This document shows positions 42,012-64,000 of a stretch of DNA of 64,000 bases, piece after piece. Within the stretch, counting starts at the first letter, position 1; every line of letters begins with the position of its first letter. Made by a program: the position numbers and the translations under genes. The notes under the pieces are model-generated. The model made no database searches. It worked only from the letters and a program-made list of their open reading frames with translations, and was not told the origin of the DNA. Source of the DNA: Candidatus Beckwithbacteria bacterium CG10_big_fil_rev_8_21_14_0_10_34_10 (lineage in GTDB: Bacteria; Patescibacteriota; Microgenomatia; UBA1400); the NCBI GenBank assembly GCA_002773945.1, contig PEZT01000010.1, positions 4,028 to 68,027 on the forward strand, in the 5' to 3' direction.

Positions 42012-42015
42012 ACTT

Positions 42016-43023: not shown

Positions 43024-43640
43024 TTAATCTCCAATCCTTTATCAGAAAAAAGGAGCTGTTCCATGACATCACAAATGGCATGAAAAGCAGCTACATGCCC
43101 TTCTTGAATGTGAGTAACATCTTGGGCTGGGATATTAACAATAATATCAGCTAATTTTTGTTTAATAATCACTCCTCCGCTACCTCCTAAAAAAGCAATT
43201 GACTTAACCCCTCTTTTTTTAGCTAACTTAAATCCATTAACAATATCTGGTGAATTACCACTGGTAGTAATGCCAATGACTAAATCCTCTGGCTTAGCTA
43301 AAGCTTCCAGTTGACGGGAAAAAATATGCTCAAAACCCAGATCATTAGAAACAGCGGTTAAAACAGAACTATCAGTTGTTAAAGCATGAGCTGGTAGCGG
43401 GAAACGGTATTCAAACCTATGATTAGTTCGAAGCATACATAAAAGCTCTCCTGCTATATGCTGAGCATCAGCCGCACTCCCGCCATTCCCAAAGGTGTAA
43501 ACCACTCCACCTTTTTTATAATAGGTTTCCACAATTGCCAAAGCGGCTTGTTTTATTACTTCTACATTTTTCTTAACCATTTCTTCTTTAGTTTTAATAC
43601 TCATTCTTAAATGATTTTTTATTCTGTCGTTAATATTCAT
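43020..43640 (-). CDS. gmhA: phosphoheptose isomerase (SIS domain, GmhA-like)
   Basis: Motif TFGNGGSAADAQHIAGEL and SIS-domain architecture (206 aa). Confidence 0.75.
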   Translation of the reverse strand: MNINDRIKNHLRMSIKTKEEMVKKNVEVIKQAALAIVETYYKKGGVVYTFGNGGSAADAQHIAGELLCMLRTNHRFEYRFPLPAHALTTDSSVLTAVSNDLGFEHIFSRQLEALAKPEDLVIGITTSGNSPDIVNGFKLAKKRGVKSIAFLGGSGGVIIKQKLADIIVNIPAQDVTHIQEGHVAAFHAICDVMEQLLFSDKGLEIK

Positions 43641-46902: not shown

Positions 46903-48404
46903 AAACCAGTTGATAAAAGAATATTATTTCCTGTGTTTTCGTCATAGCCATAAATAGGAGGACAGTTAAGGTGATTCCACTTGCAAGAACCGGCAGAGGC
47001 CGCATAAATAGCGTGAAGACGGCAAACAAAACCACCTTCATCTTCTCCGGTATTATAAAGAACTTCACCATTTTGAGCCCAACTTACATACTTTTCTAAC
47101 GATTTAGCTGGCTGACCTGGTATTTTATTAAAACAAGCGTCGGCCGCATGATTACTTGGAAGATATAAAGCCGCTAGATTATATCGATAAACTTTAAAAT
47201 GATGAAAAACAACTAATAGCAAGGCAAACATAATCAAAATTCTGAGGAAAAAAAAGCTTAAAAGACTTTTTTTTCTTATCTTAGAAAAAGAGGGAATAAC
47301 ATAATTCCAAGCTAAAATATAAAGAGTGTAAAATGAAGCTAGAACCCCGGCAGAGCGCCTGATTCCCGGTAAATCACCAGAAAAATTTCCCACCAGTAAA
47401 CTAGTTAAACCTAGAAGCAAACTTAATAAAATAGGTAGCCTTGTTTTCTTAATCTTAATAAACATCCAAACGCTTAAAAATAAAACTAATAAAACTGTTA
47501 ATAACAATATTTTGTGGGAAAACTCTACCCGGGAAATATCAGATTCAAAATAAAAACTACCAGGATAAAGAAATAAATCTTTGCCTACCTGCTTGGTTCC
47601 GGAAATAATATTATTTAGTAAATCAGATATATTTTTTGGCATCTGCCCACCCCCACCACCTCTAAAAATACCCGACCTAGCTTGATGATCATAAATAAGT
47701 TTCTGGGGATTCTTAAGATAATTTAAAACAATCAACATCGGTAAAACAAAGCTAAACAAAAGAATAATTCCATTTCTTAAAATTATTTTAAAATTAAGAT
47801 CCTTTATATTTTTCCATAAAAGAAAAATATAAATAATGAGTAAAATAGGAATGTACGCTAAAAAAGTTGGGTAAGACATAGCCGCCAACATAATTAAAAA
47901 ACCAAGGCTAAATTGCTTTATCCCCGCCATTAATGGCCGGGAAAAATCTAAACTTAACAATAAATAAAGACAAATTGGAAAATATTGCAAATCAATCCCA
48001 AAGCTTGTCTGGAGGGTGTTGAAATACAAAAGAGTCGGCGATAAACCAATCGCCAGTAAAGGCAACCAGCTTATTCTTCTTTTAAAATACTTATTAAAAA
48101 TAGCCCCGAGACTTAAAAGAGAAAAAAAATGAACTGCCAGGCGAAAATACTTGGCTGTAAATAAAGTAAATCCAAATAAATTGTAAACCACTAAAAGAGT
48201 TCCATACCAACCAACATTGCTGGAAATACCATCATAGATAGTTCTATTCTGAAGCCAGAAGACATTCCGAACAGATTCAGCTAATTCTTCTAAGCGGATT
48301 TTATTAGTAGAATTAAGGGTATAAACAAGCTGAAATAACCAAATAAAAACTACTAACAATAAATCCCAAAGTCTAGATAATTTATTTAATTTTTTAATTT
48401 TCAT
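46875..48404 (-). CDS. polytopic membrane protein with cysteine-rich C-terminal extracytoplasmic tail
   Basis: The C-terminus ADACFNKIPG...GFVCRLHAIYAASAGSCKWNHLNCPPIYGYDE has 5 Cys in about 60 aa. Confidence 0.5.
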   Translation of the reverse strand: MKIKKLNKLSRLWDLLLVVFIWLFQLVYTLNSTNKIRLEELAESVRNVFWLQNRTIYDGISSNVGWYGTLLVVYNLFGFTLFTAKYFRLAVHFFSLLSLGAIFNKYFKRRISWLPLLAIGLSPTLLYFNTLQTSFGIDLQYFPICLYLLLSLDFSRPLMAGIKQFSLGFLIMLAAMSYPTFLAYIPILLIIYIFLLWKNIKDLNFKIILRNGIILLFSFVLPMLIVLNYLKNPQKLIYDHQARSGIFRGGGGGQMPKNISDLLNNIISGTKQVGKDLFLYPGSFYFESDISRVEFSHKILLLTVLLVLFLSVWMFIKIKKTRLPILLSLLLGLTSLLVGNFSGDLPGIRRSAGVLASFYTLYILAWNYVIPSFSKIRKKSLLSFFFLRILIMFALLLVVFHHFKVYRYNLAALYLPSNHAADACFNKIPGQPAKSLEKYVSWAQNGEVLYNTGEDEGGFVCRLHAIYAASAGSCKWNHLNCPPIYGYDENTGNNILLSTGLWESYYFGH

Positions 48405-50013
48405 AAAGATAGTTATCTTTATAGGAATTAGGCCGACGTTCTTCTAAAACTATTCCCCCAAATTGGTACTGTTCTTTTACAAAACTAAATTCATTTTGCC
48501 TATTAACAAAGTCTGTATAAACAATATTTTTTAATAAATCTGGCTCATAAATTGTAAAATGATTTGGGGTTATTTGAGCAGCCATTTTCAAAAGTTTGCC
48601 TCCAAAAAATCCCTCTTGCTCGGGCCCAAAAAACTGAGGAACATATCCATGTCTACTTTCTCCATACCACTTAAAAAGATAAGCCCAGGTAGTATTATAA
48701 CTATATGGATTGGTAAAACTAGAAAAAGTAAAAGGCCCATAATCAGCCAACTCATACATTTTATCAATTACAGCTAACTCATCACTAAAAGTCGCTCCCT
48801 GTTGGACACCATATAAATAGTAATTATCTTTTTTGTAGATCTGCATTTGTCTAAAATGTAATAATACAAATAAAACTGCTAAAAAGATTCCTAATATTCT
48901 CCATCTTTTTTGTTTTATAAGCTTGCCAATTATGTAAGAAAAAGGTAATAAAATCACTATTTCCATTCCAATTAGTAAATGAACAGAACCATGAGGTTTA
49001 ATAAGTAAAAACATCCCGATAGCACTAAACCAAATCAATAAAAAATACTTTAGTTTTTGGTTTAATTGGCGCCAAAAATATACCAAAGATGTAATAAAAA
49101 TTAATAAGGAAATTGTTGTTTGTTTTTTCCAAAAAAGACGAGTGACTTTCTCAATGTACAAATTAATTACTTGTTTAAATAAATGGAAATTGTTCTGACT
49201 ATGTTCCATCAATAATTTACTGTCTTTGAAATTAAAAATTCCCAAACGCCACAATTTCCATTGGGTTAAAATCATCGAAAAAACTAAAATTAAATATAAA
49301 ACTCCTGCCATAAAAAATTGATTGGCAGAAAATAGAAATAATTTTTTTTTCTTCAAGGCCAGATAAAAATAAGATAAGCCCAAAGGAATAAACAAGTACA
49401 ATGTCCAAACCGCCGCTTGGTTAGATAAAGCAAGACTTACAATTAAAAAAAATAAGTACTGTTTTTTCTCTTGAAAAAACACATACCATAAAAATAAGTA
49501 AAAACAGGGAATTGTAATAAGGGTAATAATTGGGTTTGACAACCATACCCCCAAAGAAAGATTTTCAATGTTAAAACTAATAAAAATTGTGCTTAATAAG
49601 GCTATTCTTTTATCTTTCATCAAAGACTTAACCAGAAAATAAATGGGAAAAACAAATGCAAAAGAAACAATACTGCTCAAAACCAAAGTCACCAAAAAAG
49701 GATTACCTTGTAATAACCAATAAAAAGACGCTAATAAATAATAGTACATCACTCCATGATAAATTTGGTCGTTCGTACCGCTTGCCGATGGCCCCTGTAG
49801 TTTAAGATCACCATGTAATAACTCTTGAACAATAACTGCATCACGAGCCTGATCAAACCAAAAATAATTTTTATTAGGGATAAGAAAGCAGGCTTTAATC
49901 AAAGCTGAAATCAAAGCAATTAGAAACAAAAATTTAATTTCCTTGAATGGGGGTAACATTTTCTTTACTTTATAAATCATCTTAAAAATAGGAAAACCCT
50001 TATTCATCTTCAA
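48394..50013 (-). CDS. polytopic membrane protein, paralog of 23271-24824
   Basis: Shared FDQARDAVIVQELLHG loop motif and similar C-terminal domain (TIYEPDLLKN, compared with VIYEPDSFKE). Confidence 0.55.
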   Translation of the reverse strand: MKMNKGFPIFKMIYKVKKMLPPFKEIKFLFLIALISALIKACFLIPNKNYFWFDQARDAVIVQELLHGDLKLQGPSASGTNDQIYHGVMYYYLLASFYWLLQGNPFLVTLVLSSIVSFAFVFPIYFLVKSLMKDKRIALLSTIFISFNIENLSLGVWLSNPIITLITIPCFYLFLWYVFFQEKKQYLFFLIVSLALSNQAAVWTLYLFIPLGLSYFYLALKKKKLFLFSANQFFMAGVLYLILVFSMILTQWKLWRLGIFNFKDSKLLMEHSQNNFHLFKQVINLYIEKVTRLFWKKQTTISLLIFITSLVYFWRQLNQKLKYFLLIWFSAIGMFLLIKPHGSVHLLIGMEIVILLPFSYIIGKLIKQKRWRILGIFLAVLFVLLHFRQMQIYKKDNYYLYGVQQGATFSDELAVIDKMYELADYGPFTFSSFTNPYSYNTTWAYLFKWYGESRHGYVPQFFGPEQEGFFGGKLLKMAAQITPNHFTIYEPDLLKNIVYTDFVNRQNEFSFVKEQYQFGGIVLEERRPNSYKDNYLYEN

Positions 50014-50956: not shown

Positions 50957-52292
50957 GATCCTCCGAACTTATAAGGCTGACTTTTATCCAATTCATAATA
51001 ATGACGATAGTTTATTTCATGTCTGGGCTGGTACCAGTTCTTTTAAAAATATTATAAAACCCGCTAGTCTTTCTATTTTTACTCAAAATAATAAGTCTCT
51101 TTTCTGGTACTCTCAATATAATCATTTTGACACTATCAGACGTTTTAGTTTCCGTCTAACTCAGCCCTATTTTGACCAGCCGCCATTAGCAATGTTCTTT
51201 ATAGCTCTCCCTGCCAAAATTTTAGGATTCAATGACTTTGTCCAGGTTCCTCATCTTCTAGTCCGCCTCCCTGCTCTTTTAATGTCTATTTTTAGTCTTT
51301 ATCTTACCTATATTTTAGCAAAAAAAACCTTCAATCAGAAGACTGCCTTTTTTTCCCTCTTGGTTTATACCTTAACACCCATCTTTGTTTTTAGTCATAG
51401 ACTAGCTTACCTAGAAAACTTCTTAACCCCAATATTTTTATTTAGCTTAATTAAGCTAAAAGATTATCTTAAAAAGCCTTCAAAATTTAATTTATCAGTA
51501 TTGATTTTTTTGGGGTTTATAAGCGGCTTTGTAAAAATTATTGGTTTTGGTTTACCCTTTATCCTCGCTTTTTGGCTTTTTAAAAACAAAAAAACAAAAC
51601 AAACTTTTTATCTTGTCTTAACCGGCTTTCTTTCTTTTTTAAGCTATCTTTTATATGGATTTTTAGTAAACTGGCAGCAATTTAAATTTACTCTCCAAGC
51701 TCAATCTGGCCGAGGGATGTATCTAACTTCATTTTTTCACATCTTAAACCGAGTTGAATTTTATGAGCCTTTTAACGATGGCATTTATATTCTAGGTTTT
51801 ATTATGGCTTTATTCCTTTTAATTAAAAGTTTAAAAAATAAAAAACTGGAGTTTTTTTCTCTTAATTTTCTTTTCTGGTTAGTTTTAATTATTATTACTT
51901 CAGGAGTTAATAATAATTCATACTGGTACCGCTACCCTCTTTTCCCCTTCTTAAGCATGGCTTTAGGTTATTATCTTAATCTTATCTTAAAAAAGCCGAC
52001 TATTATTTCTGTTTTTCCCCTTCTCCTTCTTGGTTTTACCAGCCCTGATCTTTTAGAACTCAATCCCAATACTTTATTTTTAAGAATAAGCTATTTGCTT
52101 TTTTTAAGCCCGTTTTTAGTCAAATATCTTTTTCCTCATTCTAAAAAAATAAAATGGCTCTGCCATAGACTAACCATCGCTTTGATAATTCTGATGTTTT
52201 TAATCAATGCCCTTGTTCCCCTAAAATATCTTTCTAAAAAATGCCAGAAAGATGACTGTTTAATTCCGACAAAAATTATTGTCTCTCCTTAA
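50898..52292 (+). CDS. polytopic membrane protein, GT-C-like candidate
   Basis: TM1 then the loop YPIHNNDDSLFHVWAGTSS, then about 11 helices. Its start region overlaps the divergent gene 50000-50956 by up to 59 nt. Confidence 0.55.
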   Translation: MRLSKLGEIFLIWLIIFFGMILRTYKADFYPIHNNDDSLFHVWAGTSSFKNIIKPASLSIFTQNNKSLFWYSQYNHFDTIRRFSFRLTQPYFDQPPLAMFFIALPAKILGFNDFVQVPHLLVRLPALLMSIFSLYLTYILAKKTFNQKTAFFSLLVYTLTPIFVFSHRLAYLENFLTPIFLFSLIKLKDYLKKPSKFNLSVLIFLGFISGFVKIIGFGLPFILAFWLFKNKKTKQTFYLVLTGFLSFLSYLLYGFLVNWQQFKFTLQAQSGRGMYLTSFFHILNRVEFYEPFNDGIYILGFIMALFLLIKSLKNKKLEFFSLNFLFWLVLIIITSGVNNNSYWYRYPLFPFLSMALGYYLNLILKKPTIISVFPLLLLGFTSPDLLELNPNTLFLRISYLLFLSPFLVKYLFPHSKKIKWLCHRLTIALIILMFLINALVPLKYLSKKCQKDDCLIPTKIIVSP

Positions 52293-53365
52293 AGAAGTTT
52301 ATTTAAAGCAGAAAACATCCTTTGTTTGGTAAAAAATCTTCCTCTTTTAATTGAGTCTTTCCTTAAATCAGCCATTAATGAATCATTTTTAATTACTTTA
52401 TTTGTTTTTTTATTAAGTTCTTCTAAAGACTCCCAAAGAAATTGCTCTTTTCTAACAATTTCTGAAACTCCCCCGCCTTTGAAAACTAAAGGAACTGCTC
52501 CGCTAACCATTGCTTCAACAACACTAATCCCAAAATGTTCGGCTCTTTCCGGATGAACCTCAAGGTTATTACTAAAGCCAGCTGCATGCCAGTATATTTT
52601 CGCTTTTTTATAATAATCAAAAAGAGTCTTAAAACTTACATTTGGAACAATCTTAACTGGATAACCTTTAGTTAACTGCTTTAACTTCTTAAAATATTGA
52701 TTCTCTTCCATTAAGCCGCCCAGTAAAACTAAAGACCAATCTTTTAAACCATCATCAACCAGTTTTTTGAATGCTTTAACTAAAACATCTTGTTTTTTGG
52801 CATTTAAAATCTGGTCAAAGCGGCCGACAGATAAAATAATATTTTCTTTATCCTTTATTTTATTTAACTCAAAAAAATTGCTAGAAACAGTTGGATAAAT
52901 CACTTGACTGCAAACCTTAAATTCTTCATCTATAAATTTTTTGACAAAATTAGAATAACTAATAACCTGATTTATTTTCTTTAACTTTCCTTGATTAAAA
53001 ATTGATCGGCCCTGAATATTAATAAAAGGAGATTGAAAAAGAAGCCAATTATTTTTAGCAAACAAAAGGGGAATGCTCCCATCAGATACAAAAAAAATTA
53101 ACTGATAATCTTTAGTTAATAAATATTTTTGCACTAAATTGCCTTTTTTCTTTAAAACAGAAAAGGCTTTTTTATTAACTTTTATTCTATCTTCAAAATC
53201 TAAACTAAATCTTAAATAAATCTTTTCTAAAATTGATTTTTCCGGCCAGGCAATCTCAACTGAAAATTTTTGCTGGAAAAGAAATTCTCCTACCAGTAAA
53301 CTATAGAATTCCCCTCCTCCTAGGGTATCTAAATAGGGATTAAAAATCAGGGCTTTTTTTATCAT
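52289..53365 (-). CDS. GT4-like glycosyltransferase
   Basis: C-terminal motif EHFGISVVEAMVSGAVPLVFKGGGVSEIV. Confidence 0.65.
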   Translation of the reverse strand: MIKKALIFNPYLDTLGGGEFYSLLVGEFLFQQKFSVEIAWPEKSILEKIYLRFSLDFEDRIKVNKKAFSVLKKKGNLVQKYLLTKDYQLIFFVSDGSIPLLFAKNNWLLFQSPFINIQGRSIFNQGKLKKINQVISYSNFVKKFIDEEFKVCSQVIYPTVSSNFFELNKIKDKENIILSVGRFDQILNAKKQDVLVKAFKKLVDDGLKDWSLVLLGGLMEENQYFKKLKQLTKGYPVKIVPNVSFKTLFDYYKKAKIYWHAAGFSNNLEVHPERAEHFGISVVEAMVSGAVPLVFKGGGVSEIVRKEQFLWESLEELNKKTNKVIKNDSLMADLRKDSIKRGRFFTKQRMFSALNKLL

Positions 53366-53423: not shown

Positions 53424-54617
53424 ATGATTGCTTTAATAATCCTAGTTTCGCTTTTTATTGCCAGCCGGGTCATTATTTTTGTTTTTCCCCCTCATTTTTC
53501 TGATGTCATGTATAGTTATTATCATTATGCTAGGATCTGGACTGAAGGCTATCCTGCTTATTTAGTCCATTTGTTTGAATACCCACCGGCCAATATAATT
53601 TTGTTTTATCTTCCTTGGATATTGGATCGGGCTTCTATCCTCGGTTACCCTGATTTTTACCGTTTTTTTGTCTTTTTAGCTGATGTAATTATCTTTATTG
53701 TCTCTTTTAAAGTCTTAAAAAAACTAAAACTTAAAAAGGGGATTATTTTTATTGCTCTTCTCTACTACATTTTAGCTTTAACCAAAGCCAAAGATTTTGT
53801 TTATGACAGCATGGACCTTGTTTTTATCAGCGGTTTTTTCTTATCCCTGGCTTTATTAAAATTAAAAAAACAAACTCCTAAAATCCGCTTTTTTTCCTGG
53901 TTTTTTTTCTGGCTTTCAACTGCTTTTAAATATATTACGGCGCCTTTATTTATCCCTTATCTTTTATTAATGAGAAAGGGCAGAGATCTTAAAAAAGAAA
54001 TCCTTATAAGTTTTATGGCCTTTGTGGCTGTTTGGGGTCTGCCTTTAATTATTTTCCGCTCCTCTTTATCAGTTACCTTTGTTTACCATCTTAAAAGAGG
54101 TTTTCAAGTAGAATCAATGCCCGCTAATGTTATCCGGCTGGTTAACCGCTGGACTCAATCAGACAGTTTTGTTGAAGTATATAAAAACTACGATATTATA
54201 GGTCCTGTAACCGCTAAACTTCAACCTTACTTATCTATTATATTCCCTTTAACTATGCTCGCCTTCTTTATTTATAGTTTAAAAAAATCCCTTGATTTAT
54301 CAAAGCCAACAGGAAAAAGCTTTGACGAGTATAAAGAAAAGTTAAAATTAGGCTTAATCTATCTTTTCCTTTTTATGGCCACTGGTAAAGTTTTTTCTAC
54401 TCCTTTCCATCTCTGGCTACCACCACTATTAACCATTTATCCTTTTAAATCAGTTAAACAACAGTTAAAAGTCCTTTTTGTCTCCTTTTTTATGATTGCC
54501 ATTTCTATGACCCCTATTCCTAACCTGACTTATCAGGGTTTTGAACTTCACAATGCCATTGGTCTTATGCGGCCTATTTGTCTTTTATATATGCTTATTA
54601 AGATAAAAAAAACTTGA
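53424..54617 (+). CDS. polytopic membrane protein, tandem paralog a
   Basis: Shares LFEYPPANI and FRSSLSVTFVYHLKRG motifs with the following gene. Confidence 0.55.
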   Translation: MIALIILVSLFIASRVIIFVFPPHFSDVMYSYYHYARIWTEGYPAYLVHLFEYPPANIILFYLPWILDRASILGYPDFYRFFVFLADVIIFIVSFKVLKKLKLKKGIIFIALLYYILALTKAKDFVYDSMDLVFISGFFLSLALLKLKKQTPKIRFFSWFFFWLSTAFKYITAPLFIPYLLLMRKGRDLKKEILISFMAFVAVWGLPLIIFRSSLSVTFVYHLKRGFQVESMPANVIRLVNRWTQSDSFVEVYKNYDIIGPVTAKLQPYLSIIFPLTMLAFFIYSLKKSLDLSKPTGKSFDEYKEKLKLGLIYLFLFMATGKVFSTPFHLWLPPLLTIYPFKSVKQQLKVLFVSFFMIAISMTPIPNLTYQGFELHNAIGLMRPICLLYMLIKIKKT

Positions 54618-54624
54618 TGAAAAG

Positions 54625-55908
54625 ATGAAAAAAATTATTAACTGGAAATCAATCATTATCTGGGTAAAGAAAAACAAGTTTATTCTTCTAAGTTTGATAT
54701 TATTCCTTTTAGTAAGAACTTTTATTCTTTTAAATCCTCCAGCTGATTATCTTGGAGTTCCCCGGGAAGGTTATTCTGATGTCACTCATTTTTATGAAGG
54801 CTACGCTAATATGTGGTGGTATGGCCTGACACCTTATTTAGAACATCTTTTTGAATATCCCCCGGCGGCCATTCCTTTAATTGCTCTTCCTTTAGCGGTT
54901 GATCTAGCTGGAGTAGGTTTTTATTATCTTAATTATAGAGTCCAAATTTTCTTAATAGAACTAGTCATCTATTTTTTTATCTTAAAGACTCTTAAAAAGA
55001 CTTTTTCCAACCCGTTTCAAAGATATGCTTCAATCATTTTCTATAACCTGGCCCCCATTATTGCCAATGGCTTCTGGTATGACGGCATAGATCTTGCTTT
55101 TAGCGGCAGTCTAATTCTGGCTTTAATCTCTTATCTCTTCTTAAACAAACAAAAATTTATTCACAAAGTTGTCTTTTGGTCTTTATTCTGGCTTTCAGTA
55201 GCCATAAAGTTTGTTACTTTTCCCCTTTTCTTCCTTTTTTTTATCATTAAGAATAAAAACTTTAAAAAATCATTTAAAGAAGAATTTATTGCCTTAGTGA
55301 CTGGCTTTTTAATTATCTGGGCTGTGCCTTTAGCTGTTTTCCGCTCCTCTTTATCAGTGGCTCTGTTTTTCCATGCTAAAAGACCGCTACATGCTTCTTC
55401 CTTTCCTGCTTTTATTATTTATACTATTAATCACTTTACTAATAGTGAAGTTTTTAGAAACTTAGAATGGTTTGGCCCTTTAACCCAAAAAGCTCTTTTT
55501 TTATCATTTATTTTCTTAGGAGTAACTACTGTTCTAGTTTCTTTTTGGGCCATAATGAAAAAAATAAAAGACAAACAGATTAACCCCTACACTCTTATGT
55601 TAAAAACCAGCCTTATCTACCTTTTGGCTTTTATGATGACGAGTAAGATTATTTCTCCCCCTTTTCATATTTGGACTACTCTTCTTTTAACAGTTTTTCC
55701 TTATAAAAATAGAAAAACCCAGTTCGCTTTTTTATTACTGGGTCTCTGGACCTTAATCCTTAATACAACTAATATTGTCAAACTGCCGGAAACAATAATG
55801 ATCTACCCTTTTACCTGGCAATATTTAAGACACATCCTCCGCTTCCCACCCCTTATCCTAATCGCCTTTTTAATGATGAAAAAACAAGAGAAGTTTATTA
55901 AGTCGTAA
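54625..55908 (+). CDS. polytopic membrane protein, tandem paralog b
   Basis: LFEYPPAAI and FRSSLSVALFFHAKRP motifs. Its 3-prime end overlaps the convergent minus-strand gene by 11 nt. Confidence 0.55.
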   Translation: MKKIINWKSIIIWVKKNKFILLSLILFLLVRTFILLNPPADYLGVPREGYSDVTHFYEGYANMWWYGLTPYLEHLFEYPPAAIPLIALPLAVDLAGVGFYYLNYRVQIFLIELVIYFFILKTLKKTFSNPFQRYASIIFYNLAPIIANGFWYDGIDLAFSGSLILALISYLFLNKQKFIHKVVFWSLFWLSVAIKFVTFPLFFLFFIIKNKNFKKSFKEEFIALVTGFLIIWAVPLAVFRSSLSVALFFHAKRPLHASSFPAFIIYTINHFTNSEVFRNLEWFGPLTQKALFLSFIFLGVTTVLVSFWAIMKKIKDKQINPYTLMLKTSLIYLLAFMMTSKIISPPFHIWTTLLLTVFPYKNRKTQFAFLLLGLWTLILNTTNIVKLPETIMIYPFTWQYLRHILRFPPLILIAFLMMKKQEKFIKS

Positions 55909-57583
55909 TCTTTGTCAGTTGCCAGATTGGTTCACCTAAAAAATTATAGATTAAAAAATTATTTCCCTCTTTTGTTGGTCTAGATCCGGGAACAACTTTT
56001 TCCACTAATAAAATTGATTTTCCCCTTTCAATTTTCTGTTTTAAACTATCTGGATGTTTCCATTCAGCTAAATTTTCATTAAAGCGGTATTTGTCATAAA
56101 TGACTACCCTATCCATTCCCACAAGTTCTCTTTCTGCTTTTAACTGAAAATCAGCTGGTTCAAAAGGTAAATAAAAAGCCAAAAAAATATAACTGACTTC
56201 AACATTAGGATCAAAAAGAATTAAGTCATATTTTTCCTCATCGGTCTTTATCTTTTGACAAACTTCCTTTATCCCCGGCAGCCAAAATTTATCCTGAATC
56301 TGGGGAAAAATAATAAAATAGGCCAGCAAATAATCGACAATGGAAAAAAGAAGAACAGCGCTAACAACAATATTTTTATATTTCCCCTTTTTTACCTGCC
56401 AAGCCCAAAATTCTTCTAAACCTAAAGCGGCAAATAGAACCAAAATTAAGTGAAAAAACAATAATCTAGTTAGAATAGGTGAATCAATAGTAAAACCATT
56501 GGCTAAAGGAGAAATAAAAAAACATCCTAAAAGAAACAGGTTTTCTTTTTTCTCTAGGTTTTTAACTACCTTTAAAAAACCAATCAGAATAAAAGGAAAA
56601 AACACCACTAAAATATTGCCAAAATTTAAGCTCCCTAAACTGTGCCAGGAATTATTATCACTTTCAAAAAATATAAATTTGGGATTAAAAGCCGCTAAAT
56701 AGTTTTTTGAAAAATCCTTGAATAATAAAACCGGTTGATTATAAAAAACTCTGGCTAAAAATATTGGTATTTCTTTCTTATCCATTAAAAACGTATTCTT
56801 GCTTATTCTCTCTTTTAATTCTTCTTGGTTAAAAATAGTCGTATTAGCCCGACCCTGATTTCCTTCTTTAGCTAAATGCCAATAACTAAACCAGCCTAAA
56901 CTTAATAAAACAACAAATAAAAAAACAAGCAGGTTCTTTTTTGGTTTTGATTTTTTTTCTACAGTTTTAAAATAGTCCTTTCTAAAAAACAAAAAACATA
57001 AAATTATTAATGGGGGAGTAATAAACAAGGGGGTATTGTAAATAAAAAAAGAAACAATAAATAAGGGTAAAGCGACAAAAAGTAATCCTAATTTTTTTCT
57101 GGCTTTTAAAACATAAGTTAAGCCAGTTAAAGTAAAAAATAGAGCCATCGTGGCTTCAAACTGCTGACGGCTATAATGTAAGTGAAAAGGAGAAACACTC
57201 AAAAGAAAAATAAAAAGCAGGGCTAAATTTTTCCTCTTGGGAAAAATCTCTTTAACAAAAAAATAGCCGCTAATTACGGTCAACCAGCCAAATAAAGCCG
57301 CCGGCAACCTCACAGCAAAAGCATTTAAACCAAAGATCTTTATTAAAGGAGCCGTTAAATAAATATATCCAGGGATTTTATTATCTCCAAAAGCTCGAAA
57401 AACTAACGGCCATAATCTACCATGTTCATCTTTTTGAGTCTTTAAAATTGAATAAGCATTAAAACCAACTGAAACTTCATCTCGGTTTAACTCTGAAGGA
57501 ATTTTGCTTAAAAAAACAAAACGAAGAATAAAGGCTAAAACAATTATTATTAAAAAGATAAAATTCCGTCTGTATTTTTTCAT
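55898..57583 (-). CDS. PMT_2/GT39-GT83-like GT-C glycosyltransferase, paralog 6
   Basis: LNRDEVSVGFNAYSILKTQKDEHGRLWPL and PFHLHYSRQQFE motifs. Confidence 0.65.
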   Translation of the reverse strand: MKKYRRNFIFLIIIVLAFILRFVFLSKIPSELNRDEVSVGFNAYSILKTQKDEHGRLWPLVFRAFGDNKIPGYIYLTAPLIKIFGLNAFAVRLPAALFGWLTVISGYFFVKEIFPKRKNLALLFIFLLSVSPFHLHYSRQQFEATMALFFTLTGLTYVLKARKKLGLLFVALPLFIVSFFIYNTPLFITPPLIILCFLFFRKDYFKTVEKKSKPKKNLLVFLFVVLLSLGWFSYWHLAKEGNQGRANTTIFNQEELKERISKNTFLMDKKEIPIFLARVFYNQPVLLFKDFSKNYLAAFNPKFIFFESDNNSWHSLGSLNFGNILVVFFPFILIGFLKVVKNLEKKENLFLLGCFFISPLANGFTIDSPILTRLLFFHLILVLFAALGLEEFWAWQVKKGKYKNIVVSAVLLFSIVDYLLAYFIIFPQIQDKFWLPGIKEVCQKIKTDEEKYDLILFDPNVEVSYIFLAFYLPFEPADFQLKAERELVGMDRVVIYDKYRFNENLAEWKHPDSLKQKIERGKSILLVEKVVPGSRPTKEGNNFLIYNFLGEPIWQLTKITT

Positions 57584-58491
57584 AAGTTAGCTTTAGAAAA
57601 CTTCAATGCCAAAAAATCTTTAACTGCTTTTTGCTGGTATTTATTTCCTTTTACTTTAAATAAATATTTTAAACCTTCTTTTAAAACTGACAGTTTAGCT
57701 TTTAAAGAAGCATATTTAAAAGCAAAAAACAATCTATTTCTTGTTTGGTAATAGACTGAAGTTTTATTTCCAGCTCCACCGCTAGCAGAAGCATTTTTAT
57801 GCCAAAGAAAAGGATTAGGATCATAAAAAACTTCAAAACCTGCTTTTTTGGCTCTTAAAGAAAAATCAATATCCTCCCAATACATAAAGTACTTTTCATT
57901 TAAAAGCCCAATTTTTTCTAAACAGCTGGCTCTAATTAACATACAACAGCCGGTCGAAAAATCAGTTTTAGAAAAACTGTTATACCGGCCAATATCAACC
58001 TCATCTATTCCTCTATGGGAAGCTAGAATATTTTTCCAGTCAATTCTACCGCCAGCATACCAAATAACTTTTCCCCTCTCTTTTTCTTTGTATCTTTCTT
58101 TATGAAACTCAAAACCTTTGGCAAAATATATTTTAGGAGAAACTAAGGCAATCTTATCCCTTTCCTTAACTCCTTTAATTAAATCTACTAGTAAATTCTT
58201 ATCCACTAAAGTATCGTTGTTTAAAAGGAGTAAAAAATCCGGTTTAAATTTCAAAGCATAACGAATACCCGCATTATTCCCTGCCCCAAAACCTAAGTTT
58301 TCTTTACTCTCAATCACCTTAATTTGAAAAAACTTCTTTTTTATTGCTTTGATACTGCCGTCATTAGAAGCATTATCAACCACTATAGTTTTTAGATCTA
58401 TTTTTCCTACTTCCAATTTTTCCAAACTCCCAAGGCATTCAAGGGTGTTCTTTTTACCATTGTAGTTTAGAATAATAATAAAGATTTTCAT
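57580..58491 (-). CDS. GT2 family glycosyltransferase (WbbL/rhamnosyltransferase-like)
   Basis: IIILNYNGKKNTLECL and VVDNASNDGS motifs. Confidence 0.75.
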   Translation of the reverse strand: MKIFIIILNYNGKKNTLECLGSLEKLEVGKIDLKTIVVDNASNDGSIKAIKKKFFQIKVIESKENLGFGAGNNAGIRYALKFKPDFLLLLNNDTLVDKNLLVDLIKGVKERDKIALVSPKIYFAKGFEFHKERYKEKERGKVIWYAGGRIDWKNILASHRGIDEVDIGRYNSFSKTDFSTGCCMLIRASCLEKIGLLNEKYFMYWEDIDFSLRAKKAGFEVFYDPNPFLWHKNASASGGAGNKTSVYYQTRNRLFFAFKYASLKAKLSVLKEGLKYLFKVKGNKYQQKAVKDFLALKFSKANL

Positions 58492-58498
58492 TTTTCCT

Positions 58499-59956
58499 TT
58501 AAGACTTAAGCTCTTTATATAAAAAACCCGCTTCTTCTTTTAGTTTTCTTTTATTGACTAAAATAATTATTCCCATATATATAAAAATACTTAAAATAAT
58601 AATAATAATAATAGTAGTAGCCAAGTTTAAAATTAAATATTTTTTAAGCCAGCTTATTAAAACAAACATCACTAGAGAAGCGCTTAAGGGTCCCAAAACT
58701 TGAGAAGAAAAATTAAATTTAACATACTTTTTAACAATAAAGATGGCTATAAATGAGCTTAAATTAACTAGGACTGTCCCTACAGCCACTCCCAAAAAAC
58801 CAAATTTAACCGCTAAATATGGAGTAAACAGCCAGGTTAGAACTGTCCAGAGAACCATTAGTTTAAAAGTGGTTTTTATTCTTCCAATAGCATTAAAAAT
58901 TGTTGTTAAAAAGACTGCTAATGCTCCCCAGGCTGAGGCAAAACAATAAAGAAAAAGAGGAATTAAAGCTGGCTGCCATTTAAGATAACGAGGAATAATT
59001 TCTATTAAAGGCTTGGCGATAATCACTATCCCCGTTAAACTTGGAATAATAAGAAAACTTAAGAAGTAAAGAACTTTTTCAATGGCTATTTTTAATTTTT
59101 CCTTATCATGCTGAAGTCTGGCAAAAGAGGGAAAAGCAACCTTAATCGTGTTGTCAAGAAAATATCGTAAAGGCATTGTCGCCCATTTCTCTGCCCAACC
59201 AACCAACGCTACCCCTTCACTACCAATAATTCTGGCTAAAAGTAGAATCATAAACTTATCTTTAACAACCGCTAAAAAAGTGTTCATTTGGTAAGGCACA
59301 CCAAACTTTAGTAATCTTTTTAAAACCTTAAAAGAAAAGTTTAAACCAATCTTCCAAGGAGCAATAAAATAAAGAACAGCCGTTCCCAAAAAACTTCTTG
59401 CTAAAACTGCTAAGGTATAACTCTTTATCCCCCAGCCTTTCCATGCCAGAATAATAATAATTAAATTAAAACTAATAGTTTCGACAAATTGAGGAATAAT
59501 AATTTTATTAAATTGCAATTTTCTTTCCAATAAAACACTAGGAATTGTTTTTAAAGAAGACAAAAAGAAAGCTAAACTAAAGCTATAAACCAGCATCATT
59601 CCTGCTTTATCCAAATTGTAAAACTGTTTAATAAGAGGAGATAGAATAAATATGAGAACTAGTAATAACAAAACTAATATTTGCTGGATGGTAAAAGTCG
59701 AACGGATTTCTTTTGTGGTTGGCTCTTCTTTTTTTTGAACTAGAGCAGCCGCTAAACCCACATCAGAAAAGTAGGCTAAAATGTCAATCATGGCAGAAAC
59801 TAAAATGAAAAGGCCAAACTCTTTTTTTCCTAAAAAAACAGTAATAAAGAAATAGCCAATAAAGTTAATTAACTGTAAAAAAACAGTCCTGGTGCTTAAG
59901 GCTAAAACGCTTTTAATAGAACGCTTTTTTATAGATTTTAAATCAAAATTATCCAT
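58499..59956 (-). CDS. wzx: Wzx-type oligosaccharide flippase (MOP superfamily, polysaccharide biosynthesis protein)
   Basis: 485 aa, about 12-14 helices. N-terminal SIKSVLALSTRTVFLQLINFIGYFFITVFLGKKEFGLF is typical of Polysacc_synt. Confidence 0.65.
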   Translation of the reverse strand: MDNFDLKSIKKRSIKSVLALSTRTVFLQLINFIGYFFITVFLGKKEFGLFILVSAMIDILAYFSDVGLAAALVQKKEEPTTKEIRSTFTIQQILVLLLLVLIFILSPLIKQFYNLDKAGMMLVYSFSLAFFLSSLKTIPSVLLERKLQFNKIIIPQFVETISFNLIIIILAWKGWGIKSYTLAVLARSFLGTAVLYFIAPWKIGLNFSFKVLKRLLKFGVPYQMNTFLAVVKDKFMILLLARIIGSEGVALVGWAEKWATMPLRYFLDNTIKVAFPSFARLQHDKEKLKIAIEKVLYFLSFLIIPSLTGIVIIAKPLIEIIPRYLKWQPALIPLFLYCFASAWGALAVFLTTIFNAIGRIKTTFKLMVLWTVLTWLFTPYLAVKFGFLGVAVGTVLVNLSSFIAIFIVKKYVKFNFSSQVLGPLSASLVMFVLISWLKKYLILNLATTIIIIIILSIFIYMGIIILVNKRKLKEEAGFLYKELKS

Positions 59957-61653
59957 AGAATCGCTATTCCACTTATAACAGAAATTAATTCTGCCATTTT
60001 TCTTATTAAAGTGGCTTTAAAAACCAGCATCACTTCATGTTCTCCAGGTGGAATAATTGTTTTAATTATCCCATTATTATCCTGATATTCAAAATCCCAT
60101 TTTTTCCCATCAAGATAAAGAGTCCAACCGGGAAAATAAAAGCGGTTTAACTGCAACTGACTCTCCTCATCTGAATCAACCATTAATCCTAGTTTCTGGG
60201 TTTTAGATTCTAAAACTTTAACTTTAGGATGACCATTAATAACTTTAAAATCTTCTAAGGCTACTTCCGGCTCTTCTCTGACCCAGGTCGGAATATAGTC
60301 AGGAATAACTCCACTCATAGACATCCTGATCATTTTCTCATCCGAATAATATAAATCCTTAGGGTCAATATATTCTTGGGGTTTAAAATATTGAAGATTA
60401 ACTTTTAAAATTAAAGCGCTAACTAAAAATAAAAGAGCTCCAGGCAAAACTGACTTGTTTAAAAACTTAGTTTTAAGTTTTAAATCCTTTAAATAAGATA
60501 ACCAACCACCAGCTAAAAAAGCTACTAAAACAATAATAATCGAATTAAAACGCCAGGGAAATTGAATATAGGAGAAAATAGGAATCGCATCCCAGATTGA
60601 CTTCGCTTTATAAGTGGCTAAAAAAGCTAAACCCAAACCTGAAATGATAAAAAAGAAAATTAACTTTAATCTCAAACTTAATTTTCTTTTCCAACCCATC
60701 TCCACTAAACCTAAAAGCAAAGTTATTAACCCTAATCCCAAATGGACTCTCCCTAAGTGAAATGACATCCCGTCATTAGGACCATCAACTGAACCGGCAA
60801 ATCCCCATCGACCCCAGTAATATTGTCGAAAATATAAAAAATGATGAGCATAATGACTATACCCGCCGGTTAATTCTGCCACCCGAGTAAAACCCTTTTC
60901 AAAAAAAGCCGGTATTAAAAAGAAACTACTTAAACCAATCCCCAAAAGAAAACTTACAAAAACTCTTTTAAGCTTTTTTTTATCAATCTTTTTTATCAAT
61001 AAATAGAAAATGGCGAATATAATAAAAAAGGGGAGAATGATTAAGTCTAGAATTGTATGGGATAAAAGAAAAAAAGCCAATAATAAAGAATTTAACCCGA
61101 TTATTTTCTTATTCTTTTTATCAATTACTTCACTAATTCCCCACATAACCCAGGGAATTAAACTAATAGCAAACAACTCACTTAAAGCCCCTCTAACATA
61201 AAAATCAACTGCCCTATAAGGAGAATAAACAAAAGCTAAAGCCGCTAAAAACCCAGCCATTTTCCCCCAAAACTTACGAGCTAAAAAAAACATCCCAGAA
61301 AACCCTATAAAAAAAGTCAGCATAAAAACAAGTTTAATAGAATTAATAAAACTAAAAAATAAACTAAATAATACTCCAACAAAATATGGTAAAGAGCCAT
61401 AGAAACTAAATAAAGGCATCCCATAGCCCCAACCCAAATTCCTCGACCAATATGGCGGAAAATGACCATCCTTTAAAGCCCGACTCAACTCAACTAACCT
61501 AGCAACATGGGTATAATCATGCATCCTAAAAAATTTAGGATTAAAAAGAGGCCAACATGAAGGTAAAATAATCAAAATAATTAAAGCTATGAAAAGCAAT
61601 CTTTTTTTTTCAAGCTTTATTCTGGGTTTAATTTTTGTAAAATATTTTTTCAT
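59938..61653 (-). CDS. YfhO/PTPS-related-like GT-C-type membrane protein, paralog C
   Basis: FRMHDYTHVARLVELS...PPYWSRNLGWGYGMP N-terminal motif and C-terminal YFPGWTLYLDGKKWDFEY...PPGEHEVMLVFK. Confidence 0.55.
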   Translation of the reverse strand: MKKYFTKIKPRIKLEKKRLLFIALIILIILPSCWPLFNPKFFRMHDYTHVARLVELSRALKDGHFPPYWSRNLGWGYGMPLFSFYGSLPYFVGVLFSLFFSFINSIKLVFMLTFFIGFSGMFFLARKFWGKMAGFLAALAFVYSPYRAVDFYVRGALSELFAISLIPWVMWGISEVIDKKNKKIIGLNSLLLAFFLLSHTILDLIILPFFIIFAIFYLLIKKIDKKKLKRVFVSFLLGIGLSSFFLIPAFFEKGFTRVAELTGGYSHYAHHFLYFRQYYWGRWGFAGSVDGPNDGMSFHLGRVHLGLGLITLLLGLVEMGWKRKLSLRLKLIFFFIISGLGLAFLATYKAKSIWDAIPIFSYIQFPWRFNSIIIVLVAFLAGGWLSYLKDLKLKTKFLNKSVLPGALLFLVSALILKVNLQYFKPQEYIDPKDLYYSDEKMIRMSMSGVIPDYIPTWVREEPEVALEDFKVINGHPKVKVLESKTQKLGLMVDSDEESQLQLNRFYFPGWTLYLDGKKWDFEYQDNNGIIKTIIPPGEHEVMLVFKATLIRKMAELISVISGIAILWIILI

Positions 61654-62867
61654 TTTTTAATCTTTAATAACTTAAACCCTTTATAAAAAAAATAACAAAT
61701 AACAGTTAATAAAGGAATAATAAAATAAATATATTGTCTAAAAATGGGAACCGGCGGGTTCCAATTACCATACCATATATAGGGTAAATACCTTAATAAG
61801 GCCATAAAAGAGATTAAAACAAAAAACTTGACCGCCTTAATATTTTTGGCAAGGATTGCCCAAGTTAAAGGCCAAATAAAATACCAAGAGTGCATTAGGC
61901 CAAACCGACTAAACTGAATTCCAAATAAGATTACTGCTCCCCAAAAACCCAGATCAAACTTTGGTTTAAAATACCAAAGAAGAAAAAGAGGTAGTAAAAC
62001 TACCGTTGCGTACTTAATCGAAACAGAAAAAAGAAAGAAAAAGACAAAAAACAAAAACAATTTCAACTTCTCTTTGGTTATCCTTTCCTTTTTAATTTTA
62101 TTTAAAAAATAAAAGCTTAGTAAAGCCGGAGCCATCATTGAAAAATCATTATGCCCCACACCAATGGCTTCAATTAAAATCAACGGGTTTAATAAAAACA
62201 AAACTAATCTTAACTTCCTATCTTTAAGTTTTAGGTCTTTAAATAGTTTTCTCAATATTAAAAAAGTAAACCAATAAAACAAAAAAGAAAAAGCTTTAAA
62301 ACTTAAAATCTCAGTAAAAATTCTATTTAATCCCAAGATAAAAGGAATTAAAGAAATAACAGTCCAACCATAAAAATAAGGGGCGGCCGTATGAATATTT
62401 CTCATAAAACCCAACATTGGGTCTGGAAACTCCATTGCTACATGCTTATGGGGATCAGCTCCATAAACGACTATCATCTTGGCATTAAAAATATAGTTAA
62501 AAATATCATGGGAAAAAGCTGGATAAGCAAAAACAAAAATTCCTCCCACTCCTAAAGATAAAATAATTACTTCCTTTAATAAAATCTTTTTACTCTTAAC
62601 AGCTTTAGAAACTAAAAAATAAAACAAATAAGTCAGCAAGCTAATTAAAACAAAATATAGGGTTGATCGGGGACGGTTAAAATATCCAAACCAACGCATT
62701 TTCCGTTGAAACTCTAAAAAAGGCTGAAATGAAGTCAGAGTTAAACCAATGTCTAAAAAAGAATAACTATAAACAGCAAAAAGTAATGAAAATAGAGCAA
62801 AACAAAATAGCCATATTTTAGGTGAAAATGATTTAAACTTTACTTCCATATTTACCCAATAAGTCAT
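61650..62867 (-). CDS. polytopic membrane protein
   Basis: About 11 helices. Unknown family. Confidence 0.5.
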   Translation of the reverse strand: MTYWVNMEVKFKSFSPKIWLFCFALFSLLFAVYSYSFLDIGLTLTSFQPFLEFQRKMRWFGYFNRPRSTLYFVLISLLTYLFYFLVSKAVKSKKILLKEVIILSLGVGGIFVFAYPAFSHDIFNYIFNAKMIVVYGADPHKHVAMEFPDPMLGFMRNIHTAAPYFYGWTVISLIPFILGLNRIFTEILSFKAFSFLFYWFTFLILRKLFKDLKLKDRKLRLVLFLLNPLILIEAIGVGHNDFSMMAPALLSFYFLNKIKKERITKEKLKLFLFFVFFFLFSVSIKYATVVLLPLFLLWYFKPKFDLGFWGAVILFGIQFSRFGLMHSWYFIWPLTWAILAKNIKAVKFFVLISFMALLRYLPYIWYGNWNPPVPIFRQYIYFIIPLLTVICYFFYKGFKLLKIKK

Positions 62868-63594
62868 TCAATTTAATTCTTAAAACATCCAAAAACATTC
62901 TTATTGAATCTTTTATAAAACTAACCCTCTTAGTTTTATAATGCTGCCAAAAGACTGGCACTTCAGCAATTTTATAACCCATTTTCTGGCCTAAAAACAG
63001 AAGCTCAACGTCAAAAGCACCAGTATAAGCTCTTTTTGTTTCTAAATGCTTTACTTTTAGTTTTGAAAAAATATCTTTAGCGGCTTTGGTTTTTAAAAGC
63101 TTAAAACCACACTGAGTATCGTGAATTCCCGGTAAAGCAATCAGCTGAACAACTAAATTAAAAACTTTTCCCATCAAATGACGGTAAAAAGGTTCTTTTT
63201 CTCTTCTAGCTCCTTTTATTTCCCGAGAACCAATAATAATATCATAGCCTTTTTTTAAAAAAGGAAATAACTTCTCTACTTCTGAAAGGGGAGTCGCCTG
63301 ATCAAAATCAGTAAACAAAATATTTTCTCCTAAAGCTTCTACCACTCCCATAGAGACTGCCGCCGCTTTTCCCTGATGAGAATTTTTAATTAAACGCCAA
63401 TTACTCCTGCTTCTAATAAATTCCTCTATTAATTTCCTGCTTTTATCCAAAGATCCATCATCAACAATTATTACCTCATAAGAATAGGGAAATTTTTTAA
63501 GATAATCCGTCACTTTATCTAGGGCCCCTTTTTTATAGTTATCCTCTTCATTAAAACTGGGAACAATTATGGAAAGAAATATTCTATTTTTCAT
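62833..63594 (-). CDS. GT2 polyprenyl-phosphate sugar synthase (Dpm1/Alg5-like)
   Basis: IVPSFNEED, IIVDDGSLDKS, TDFDQATP and QCGFKLL motifs. Confidence 0.7.
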   Translation of the reverse strand: MKNRIFLSIIVPSFNEEDNYKKGALDKVTDYLKKFPYSYEVIIVDDGSLDKSRKLIEEFIRSRSNWRLIKNSHQGKAAAVSMGVVEALGENILFTDFDQATPLSEVEKLFPFLKKGYDIIIGSREIKGARREKEPFYRHLMGKVFNLVVQLIALPGIHDTQCGFKLLKTKAAKDIFSKLKVKHLETKRAYTGAFDVELLFLGQKMGYKIAEVPVFWQHYKTKRVSFIKDSIRMFLDVLRIKLNDLLGKYGSKV

Positions 63595-63660
63595 CTATAT
63601 AATCTATTTTACAATTTTGCTCTCTTTAATGAAATCTTAAAAAACTTCCTTATTCTTTAT

Positions 63661-63972
63661 TTAAATACTCTTCTTAAAAATGTAAATATAAAAATCTTTA
63701 TATCTTATCTCTTCTTTTTTATTTTCAGAAAAATAACTATAATCTATTTTCTGCCTTACCTGTTCAGGCATCCCCTTTTTTTCATCTTCAAGATAACTAG
63801 TTAAACAATCTTTTTCCTGATAGCAAACTTTAATGGCTAATTCTGCCTTACTAGAACCTACTGATTCCAAATTATTATAAGCCAATAAATATCTAACAGG
63901 AGCGTTGTAAAGTCTGGATGGAATCTCTAAAACATAAGGTTTATTTTCCGTTAAACTAACTATTTTATCCAT
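63661..63972 (-). CDS. small hypothetical protein (103 aa, acidic, no transmembrane segment)
   Basis: ORF only. No recognisable motif. Confidence 0.35.
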   Translation of the reverse strand: MDKIVSLTENKPYVLEIPSRLYNAPVRYLLAYNNLESVGSSKAELAIKVCYQEKDCLTSYLEDEKKGMPEQVRQKIDYSYFSENKKEEIRYKDFYIYIFKKSI

Positions 63973-64000
63973 TAATTCTTCTTTCTCCTGTAAACTCCGA

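Follow-up and report, generated by a model that had tools for sequence, protein, structure and literature searches.

Architecture of the flippase locus

The 64,000-nucleotide stretch analysed here, called the window throughout (Candidatus Beckwithbacteria bacterium CG10_big_fil_rev_8_21_14_0_10_34_10, contig PEZT01000010.1), has a G+C content of ~30% and carries nearly all of its coding sequence on the minus strand. It encodes a flippase of the PST/Wzx type in the MOP superfamily, placed between a polytopic GT-C glycosyltransferase and a soluble GT2 glycosyltransferase within a compact operon whose gene order is conserved in related genomes. Six genes form this operon, listed here in transcription order, and two further features of the window belong to the same question:

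62833-63594, minus strand: 253-amino-acid (aa) soluble GT2 of the polyprenyl-phosphate-sugar synthase type; opens the six-gene local operon
61650-62867, minus strand: 405-aa polytopic membrane protein, probably an MptA/MptB-like GT-C of the mannosyltransferase type
59938-61653, minus strand: 571-aa GT-C-fold glycosyltransferase, PF10131 'PTPS_related'
58499-59956, minus strand: 485-aa PST/Wzx-type MOP flippase with ~14 transmembrane helices
57580-58491, minus strand: 303-aa soluble cytoplasmic GT2 of the rhamnosyltransferase/GlfT-like group
55898-57583, minus strand: 561-aa PMT_2-type GT-C glycosyltransferase (PMT_2 E 3.3e-10); final gene of the operon
52289-53365, minus strand: 358-aa GT4 (Glycos_transf_1 E 2.5e-23), conserved cytoplasmic partner of the Wzx block
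18254-19305, minus strand: 233-aa PpgS/GacI-like GT2 and an overlapping 117-aa GacJ-type DUF2304 membrane protein

Public gene calls on identical contigs gave the same open reading frames (ORFs) of 571, 485 and 303 aa. Transcription runs from the GT-C gene (59938-61653) through the flippase gene (58499-59956) to the GT2 gene (57580-58491), which confirms the coordinates and order given in an initial annotation made from the sequence alone. Where its heading puts the GT2 upstream and the GT-C downstream of the flippase, plus-strand coordinates are meant. The GT-C and flippase genes overlap by 19 nt, the flippase and the 303-aa GT2 genes are separated by 7 nt, and the latter overlaps the 561-aa PMT_2 gene by 4 nt. 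This tight packing extends on the minus strand from 63594 (upstream) to 55898 (downstream), and by the junction criterion the six genes are one minus-strand transcription unit. A scan of positions 55000-64000 for consensus promoters and terminators detected 34 and 8 candidates, respectively, compared with 33.2 and 6.6 in shuffled controls; the operon structure is therefore based on the overlapping junctions.

The flippase is a PST/Wzx-type protein with a MurJ-like architecture

Searches with the 485-aa sequence revealed strong matches to Polysacc_synt_3 (PF13440; E 2.4e-50, 171.9 bits, cut-off 23) and Polysacc_synt (PF01943; E 1e-24, 87.8 bits, cut-off 28.2). The highest scoring NCBIfam models were those of WzxC-type proteins (PRK10459; 134.8 bits), O-glycosylation Wzx (Oglyco_Wzx; 129 bits) and TuaB (74.9 bits), all short of their equivalog cut-offs of 273, 720 and 580 bits, respectively. 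These three models matched 52 of 52 homologs tested. Both MurJ models stayed below their cut-offs (Pfam PF03023, 23.1 vs 27.4 bits; NCBIfam TIGR01695, 25.7 vs 235.55 bits); weak MurJ-model matches occurred in 11 of the 52 homologs, and hidden Markov models (HMMs) of the PST families were strongly preferred. No match to the MatE Pfam family was found in the flippase. Its ORF is intact, and the 52 aligned homologs share 70 invariant positions.

The AlphaFold2 (AF2) model computed with the 52 homologs (pLDDT 90.7, pTM 0.88) is all-helical with ~14 membrane helices, and ~14 hydrophobic segments are predicted in the sequence. A Foldseek search with this model detected MurJ, MATE and WzxE, each with a probability of 1.00, and showed the two-lobed helical MOP fold. 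The best matches in the PDB were the structures of T. africanus MurJ (6nc8/6nc6; TM score 0.76-0.79, 17-18% identity), followed by MATE transporters (0.5-0.6) and then by WzxE (TMt 0.71), for which the structure paper describes 12 helices. Neither the single sequence nor the 52-sequence profile matched any PDB chain at E<=1 to 10, MurJ chains included, and the comparison with MurJ and WzxE therefore relies on folds and HMM scores. A fold match to MurJ is expected, because among the MOP lipid flippases matched in the PDB only MurJ exceeds 12 helices. The resemblance to MurJ is thus one of shared architecture, and the family assignment is PST/Wzx-type. The Wzx/MOP hallmarks that the initial annotation had noticed at this position are borne out by the PF13440 score and the 14-helix MOP fold. 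A grouping with MurJ or with MATE exporters, which it had named as grounds for giving up this assignment, is not seen in the HMM scores.

The GT-C partner and the other operon members

The 571-aa protein encoded by the gene overlapping the flippase start matched PF10131 (PTPS_related, E 6.7e-14) and, weakly, an AftD GT-C family. Its AF2 model (pLDDT 94.1) displays a polytopic helical core, a C-terminal beta-sandwich and a final transmembrane helix. All 12 PDB fold matches at E<1e-3 are GT-C enzymes (STT3, AftD, EmbA/B, AftA, AglB, ArnT), and the protein is therefore assigned as a GT-C enzyme; at the sequence level, its family profile gave no match to PDB chains at E<=1 to 10. All 62 homologs keep the histidine-aspartate pair H45-D46 of the first extracytoplasmic loop. 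Two paralogs with 30-31% identity are encoded in the window (20496-22244 and 29917-31647). Of the earlier description as a YfhO-like GT-C, the GT-C fold stands and the YfhO relationship is only approximate: PF09586 is not matched by the protein, which falls into PF10131 instead. Its two window paralogs match the YfhO family in their C-terminal parts only (25.5 and 26.8 bits, cut-off 28.5). Genuine YfhO proteins of ~780 aa are present in related loci.

Downstream of the flippase, the 303-aa GT2 matched PF00535, PF13641 and PF13632, and no transmembrane segment is predicted. Its best NCBIfam model is the rhamnosyltransferase subfamily TIGR01556, reached with 75.7 bits at a cut-off of 200.55, and its nearest PDB entries are a GlfT2-type galactofuranosyltransferase (9dtp, E 6.5e-8) and the glycosyl transferase 5tze. 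'WbbL-like', as the protein had been called, is hence a fair description at the family level, but with a score this far below the cut-off a rhamnosyltransferase is not demonstrated. The window contains no clear set of RmlA-D genes for dTDP-rhamnose; epimerases of the short-chain dehydrogenase/reductase (SDR) type with weak RmlD_sub_bind matches were found past its end.

The 253-aa GT2 that opens the operon (Glycos_transf_2 E 3e-23) is likewise predicted to be free of transmembrane segments. Its best NCBIfam models are PgfS, ArnC, dolichyl-P-hexose transferase (DPhHxTase), AglJ and PpgS, with every score below the cut-off, and orthologs with a median identity of 44% were found in 59 related loci. 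The adjoining 405-aa protein shows ~9 predicted transmembrane segments and no Pfam match of its own. It is 53% identical (E 4e-113) to a protein of a related locus (L003) that carries a precomputed match to PF26314 (MptA_B_family), and by this homology it is probably an MptA/MptB-like enzyme. The 561-aa PMT_2 protein at the downstream end of the operon shares 30-34% identity with five tandem paralogs at 31634-39945.

The flippase locus is conserved across Microgenomates

The flippase sequence is identical to that of a hypothetical protein in a Candidatus Beckwithbacteria MAG. A homolog scan with one genome per species revealed a relative of the flippase in at least 573 genomes, and the best 80 loci were analysed. 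Their synteny is of the Microgenomates type, and Collier-, Woese-, Davies-, Levy-, Ames- and Blackburnbacteria are represented among them. Flippase identity is 43-69% across these lineages, and exactly one copy is found in 79 of the 80 loci. The conserved order in the 80 genomes is one or more GT-C genes, Wzx, a GT2 of ~300 aa, a GT2 of ~303 aa, a GT2 of ~260 aa and a GT4 of ~355 aa. Neighbours were counted in the 62 loci with enough downstream and the 67 loci with enough upstream sequence. In 52/62 loci, the 8 kb downstream of Wzx contain a same-strand ortholog of the 303-aa GT2; the GT4 at 52289-53365 has an ortholog no more than 10 kb downstream, also in 52/62. Upstream, a PF10131-type GT-C gene was detected within 6 kb in 58/67 loci and directly adjoining Wzx in 35/67.

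Median identities to the window proteins are 47.5% for the flippase, 44% for the 303-aa GT2, 40% for the GT4 and 31.7% for the GT-C. O-antigen Wzx proteins usually diverge strongly, and the conservation of this flippase therefore suggests a substrate common to the whole class. A literature search combining Microgenomates or Patescibacteria with flippase, GT-C, MurJ or Wzx retrieved nothing relevant to the locus.

Two further observations were made on the related loci. In 49 of them a gene for a large protein (>450, up to ~1190 aa; e.g. L043 11433-14630) directly follows the flippase gene. Four such proteins (575-1065 aa) were scanned and gave no Pfam match; the window lacks this gene and has the 303-aa GT2 gene directly after the flippase instead. 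Moreover, several contigs titled Gammaproteobacteria/Pseudomonadales, Clostridia, Spirochaetia, Bathyarchaeia or Hermodarchaeota (L014, L016-L018, L029, L053, L088, P0003/P0125) encode a flippase and a GT-C that are 45-78% identical to the Beckwithbacteria proteins. As they show the same synteny, they are probably mislabelled or misbinned Microgenomates.

No priming transferase is part of the locus

The initial annotation had proposed a saccharide primed on undecaprenyl pyrophosphate (Und-PP). Such a start would call for a phosphoglycosyltransferase (PGT), and neither PF00953 (MraY/WecA) nor PF02397 (WbaP/PglC) was detected among the 56 window ORFs and the genes called in the 10-kb flank on each side. 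A motif search for both PGT classes in the window and 93 loci (2254 ORFs in all) was likewise negative, and in the 80 related genomes (loci of ~21 kb each) no PGT was found at a distance of up to 10 kb from the flippase. A PGT is thus never part of the conserved flippase locus, and the Und-PP primer is left without backing by the searched DNA. Pfam scans of the window also detected no Wzy_C, EpsG, Wzz or ligase domain, with eight polytopic proteins there lacking a family.

Among Wzx-type proteins, WpsG and, by proposal, GacK flip glycans that a GT2 has primed on undecaprenyl phosphate (Und-P), a start for which no PGT is needed. As the searched DNA contains no PGT, we slightly favour a GT2 that primes on the monophosphate over a start on Und-PP.

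A large glycan island surrounds the flippase

Besides the flippase, the window encodes 7 GT4, 11 GT2 and 24 polytopic membrane proteins, together with methyltransferases and an aminotransferase. The polytopic proteins comprise 10 of the PMT_2 type, 3 GT-C of the PF10131 type, 1 MptA/B-like protein and 10 without a direct Pfam match. Two of these ten (19321-20487 and 48394-50013) are linked to PMT_2 through an ortholog or paralog, so that ~16 of the 24 are assignable to GT-C families. A Pfam search with relaxed thresholds on nine window membrane proteins without a family gave nothing usable. At least six of the GT2 proteins are of the polyprenyl-phosphate-sugar synthase type, and none reaches an equivalog cut-off. 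One of them, encoded at 4101-5039, is GtrB/ArnC/AglJ-like with two transmembrane segments.

The 233-aa GT2 at 18604-19305 matched the PpgS model NF058614 over its full length with 174 bits, below the cut-off. The overlapping 117-aa protein has three helices and matches DUF2304 (PF10066, E 2.2e-22); its gene is the sole small gene of the otherwise gapless window. The DUF2304 proteins GacJ and Rv3632 are activators of GacI and PpgS, respectively, and by homology the pair at 18254-19305 reads as a polyprenyl-P-HexNAc synthase with its activator. The idea of a GacI ortholog adjoining Wzx was dropped: the short GT2 proteins encoded beside Wzx in loci of the Levybacteria type share only ~30% identity with the PpgS-like protein.

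Several other regions of the window stand out. The five tandem PMT_2-type GT-C paralogs at 31634-39945 (minus strand, ~510-570 aa each) look like a local duplication. Five consecutive genes at 40696-44341 (minus strand) resemble a GDP-D-glycero-manno-heptose pathway, encoding two HddC/mannose-1-P guanylyltransferase-like nucleotidyltransferases, a GmhB-like HAD phosphatase, an HddA-like GHMP kinase and a GmhA SIS isomerase; no member of the set reaches its NCBIfam equivalog cut-off. The FAD amine-oxidase-like protein at 24834-26060 (minus strand) matched PRK07233, a 'hypothetical protein' model, above its cut-off (428 vs 252 bits). On the opposite strand, 53424-55908 (plus strand) encodes two adjacent polytopic paralogs of 397 and 427 aa that are 36-38% identical and gave no Pfam or NCBIfam match; their position is kept in two related loci (L013, L014), and a further homolog is present in a third (L089).

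The island extends past both ends of the window to a total of >84 kb. The flank before its start (L008 10781-20777) contains a Wzm/Wzt-type ABC transporter pair (ABC2_membrane and ABC_tran) and pseudaminic/legionaminic-like genes, namely a Polysacc_synt_2 dehydratase, a DegT aminotransferase, Glyco_tran_28_C, ATP-grasp and NeuB. The flank past its end (L007 1-10000) contains trmD, a UDP-glucose dehydrogenase, two SDR epimerases, two more PMT genes and two fusions, a GT2-GtrA_DPMS_TM protein of 374 aa and a GT2-PMT_2 GT-C protein of 717 aa. The island boundary marked by trmD and the GT2-GtrA fusion recurs in another locus (L011). Judged from related chromosomes and contigs of 0.6-1.1 Mb, the genome is probably <1 Mb.

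A proposed route of assembly and its alternatives

The gene identities, folds, operon structure and conserved gene order described above are compatible with a route in three stages. On the cytoplasmic face, a saccharide linked to a polyprenyl phosphate would be built by the 303-aa GT2, the GT4 at 52289-53365 and other GT2 and GT4 enzymes of the island. The flippase would then bring this lipid-linked product across the single membrane to its outer face. There, GT-C enzymes would take over and transfer or extend the saccharide. The first to act would be the PF10131 enzyme, whose gene is translationally coupled to that of the flippase, and the donors would be polyprenyl-monophosphate sugars supplied by the island's many short GT2 synthases. 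We regard this division of labour, in which neighbouring cytoplasmic enzymes build a lipid-linked saccharide, the PST protein flips it and GT-C enzymes transfer or extend it, as somewhat more likely than not. Which substrate is moved, in which direction the pathway runs and which lipid head group is used are what we infer from the gene content. The conserved soluble GT2 and GT4 beside the flippase suggest that the cell assembles and exports an oligosaccharide rather than a monosaccharide alone, and the coupled GT-C gene together with the many synthase-type GT2 proteins points to further steps outside. That GT4 and GT2 enzymes of the island could build a lipid-linked oligosaccharide had been proposed before and agrees with the 7 GT4 and several longer GT2 proteins present. 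The accompanying scheme of assembly inside, flipping and GT-C steps outside is reasonable in view of at least 13 polytopic proteins with direct GT-C Pfam matches.

Several points weigh against this route. The host is uncultured. A distance of 40 kb separates the GacI/GacJ-like pair from the flippase, and in none of the 80 related loci was a DUF2304 gene found near the flippase. The Wzm/Wzt pair beside the window is a second export route, which the cytoplasmic glycosyltransferases could feed instead of Wzx. The eight window polytopics without a family could include a Wzy-like polymerase or a second flippase. Finally, ~84 kb of the genome were inspected, and a WecA/TagO-type enzyme may sit elsewhere; E. 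coli O-antigen clusters likewise lack wecA, and it is common for PGT genes to lie apart from the glycan cluster.

This last point leads to a version of the proposed route in which the head group is fixed as pyrophosphate: a PGT encoded elsewhere would prime the saccharide, the WbbL-like GT2 and the GT4 would extend it, Wzx would flip it and GT-C enzymes would decorate it from Und-P-monosaccharides. It is a sub-case of the model above. Unlinked PGT genes are common, as wecA in E. coli illustrates; WzxC-type, O-glycosylation Wzx and TuaB proteins all handle Und-PP-linked units, and GT2 enzymes of the WbbL/GlfT group typically use GlcNAc-PP-polyprenol acceptors. Set against this, neither a PGT domain nor a PGT motif turned up in the 64-kb window, its flanks (20 kb) or the 80 loci, and scans for a Wzy, ligase or chain-length regulator domain were negative; we consider the Und-PP version possible but doubtful. 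A different role would be that proposed for GacK, with the flippase moving polyprenyl-monophosphate monosaccharides, the products of the short GT2 synthases, and so supplying the whole GT-C battery rather than exporting an oligosaccharide. At least six synthase-type GT2 proteins and ~16 assignable GT-C enzymes would fit such a supply function, as would the finding that no GtrA-domain protein is encoded in the window, the sole one found being the GT2 fusion ~6 kb past its end. A short GT2 of ~240 aa overlaps the Wzx start in seven loci, and the flippase is better conserved (47.5%) than the adjoining GT-C (31.7%), which fits a shared generic class of substrate. GacK itself is the proposed precedent, but its activity is a hypothesis drawn from a mutant phenotype. 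The most conserved neighbours here are the soluble GT2 and GT4 enzymes, implying an oligosaccharide that also needs export. A large-cavity MOP transporter, moreover, exceeds what a monosaccharide lipid needs. We therefore judge a GacK-like role unlikely.

Two readings would place the protein outside glycan export. As a functional MurJ analogue from the PST family, it could be the lipid II flippase of Microgenomates; the MurJ structures are its best fold matches and share the layout of ~14 helices, the gene is single-copy and unusually conserved across the class, and 11 of 52 family members gave weak matches to MurJ models. The Firmicute lipid II flippases YtgP and SpoVB also belong to the Pfam Polysacc_synt families and not to MurJ. 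However, the MurJ HMMs score 23-26 bits compared with 172 bits for PF13440, no MurJ chain in the PDB is matched at the sequence level even with the family profile, and the gene always stands among GT-C, GT2 and GT4 genes and never among cell-wall or division genes. The fold match itself is expected, since WzxE, the other MOP lipid flippase matched in the PDB, has 12 helices. A lipid II flippase thus appears very improbable. The other reading takes the protein for an unrelated exporter of small molecules, of the MATE type, or the gene for a decayed one without function, and it can draw on the MATE transporters among the fold matches. The exporter was rejected in view of the missing MatE match and the preference for PST HMMs in 52 of 52 homologs, and decay is at odds with an intact ORF and 70 invariant positions; we give either next to no credence.

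Within glycan export, we also see a slim chance that the flippase works without any PGT as a common flippase of polyprenyl-monophosphate-linked sugars or oligosaccharides for the two dozen GT-C enzymes. If so, a lineage with a very small genome would possess a dedicated and identifiable MOP-family flippase for Und-P-linked glycans, and thereby a tractable candidate for the kind of protein that flips lipid-monophosphate sugars. To our knowledge, the flippase for mycobacterial polyprenyl-phosphomannose and decaprenyl-phospho-arabinose (PPM/DPA) and for eukaryotic dolichyl-phosphate mannose (Dol-P-Man) is still unidentified.

The surface chemistry of Patescibacteria (candidate phyla radiation, CPR) is essentially unknown, and these bacteria are presumed to depend on contact with other cells. 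Microgenomates share a flippase-centred core of GT-C, Wzx, GT2 and GT4 genes inside a large and variable island. An island so packed with GT-C and synthase genes implies that a large share of a very small genome is devoted to building glycans outside the membrane. The flippase offers a convenient single-copy marker and an entry point to the conserved glycan, and the missing priming transferase frames a checkable question, namely whether the pathway starts on Und-P or on Und-PP.

Comparison with known systems

The component types of the locus match those of known systems, with no equivalog threshold met for any characterised protein. In the S. pyogenes group A carbohydrate (GAC) pathway, the GT2 synthase GacI, its DUF2304 activator GacJ, the Wzx-type flippase GacK and the GT-C enzyme GacL act together. 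The same four component types are present in the window, and the Gac branch operates without a PGT. In contrast to the Gac system, soluble GT2 and GT4 genes flank the flippase here, suggesting an oligosaccharide rather than a single GlcNAc, and the GT-C enzyme is of the PF10131 type, with dozens of GT-C genes instead of one.

The closest match to the gene content around Wzx is the lactococcal polysaccharide pellicle (PSP) pathway, in which the GT2 proteins WpsA/WpsB prime on Und-P, WpsC-F elongate, the Wzx-like WpsG flips and the GT-C enzymes WpsH/WpsJ act outside; the comparison was made by component type. The lactococcal acceptor rhamnan is primed by TagO and exported by an ABC transporter, and here a Wzm/Wzt pair lies just outside the window. 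The B. anthracis secondary cell wall polysaccharide (SCWP) likewise combines a Wzx/Wzy route with extracellular GT-C decoration.

With the classical Wzx proteins (E. coli WzxC and WzxE, B. subtilis TuaB) the flippase shares the MOP superfamily, the PST Pfam families and the two-lobed fold. It differs from them in having ~14 helices compared with 12 in WzxE, and in a locus where searches for PGT, Wzy and chain-length regulator domains were negative. From MurJ it is set apart by its context, which is glycan decoration and not peptidoglycan synthesis.

The similarity to mycobacterial arabinogalactan synthesis, pointed out in the initial annotation, holds in part. In arabinogalactan and lipoarabinomannan (LAM) synthesis (WbbL, GlfT1/2, Ppm1/PpgS-Rv3632, AftA-D/Emb/MptA-B), cytoplasmic GT2 enzymes are likewise followed by a GT-C battery that uses polyprenyl-P-sugars. 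Genes of the PpgS/DUF2304 and MptA/B kinds occur in the window, and the fold matches of the 571-aa GT-C include AftD, Emb and AftA; at the sequence level, however, the window proteins reach no membership in the WbbL, GlfT or Aft families. The analogy ends at the export step, as mycobacterial galactan is exported by an ABC transporter and not by a Wzx protein.

The combination of en-bloc and stepwise assembly, which had been put forward as a hybrid route, is already published logic for Gram-positive wall polymers (B. anthracis SCWP, S. pyogenes GAC, lactococcal PSP). What is unusual in comparison is the scale of the island, with >84 kb and about two dozen polytopic membrane enzymes in a small genome, together with the class-wide conservation of its flippase.

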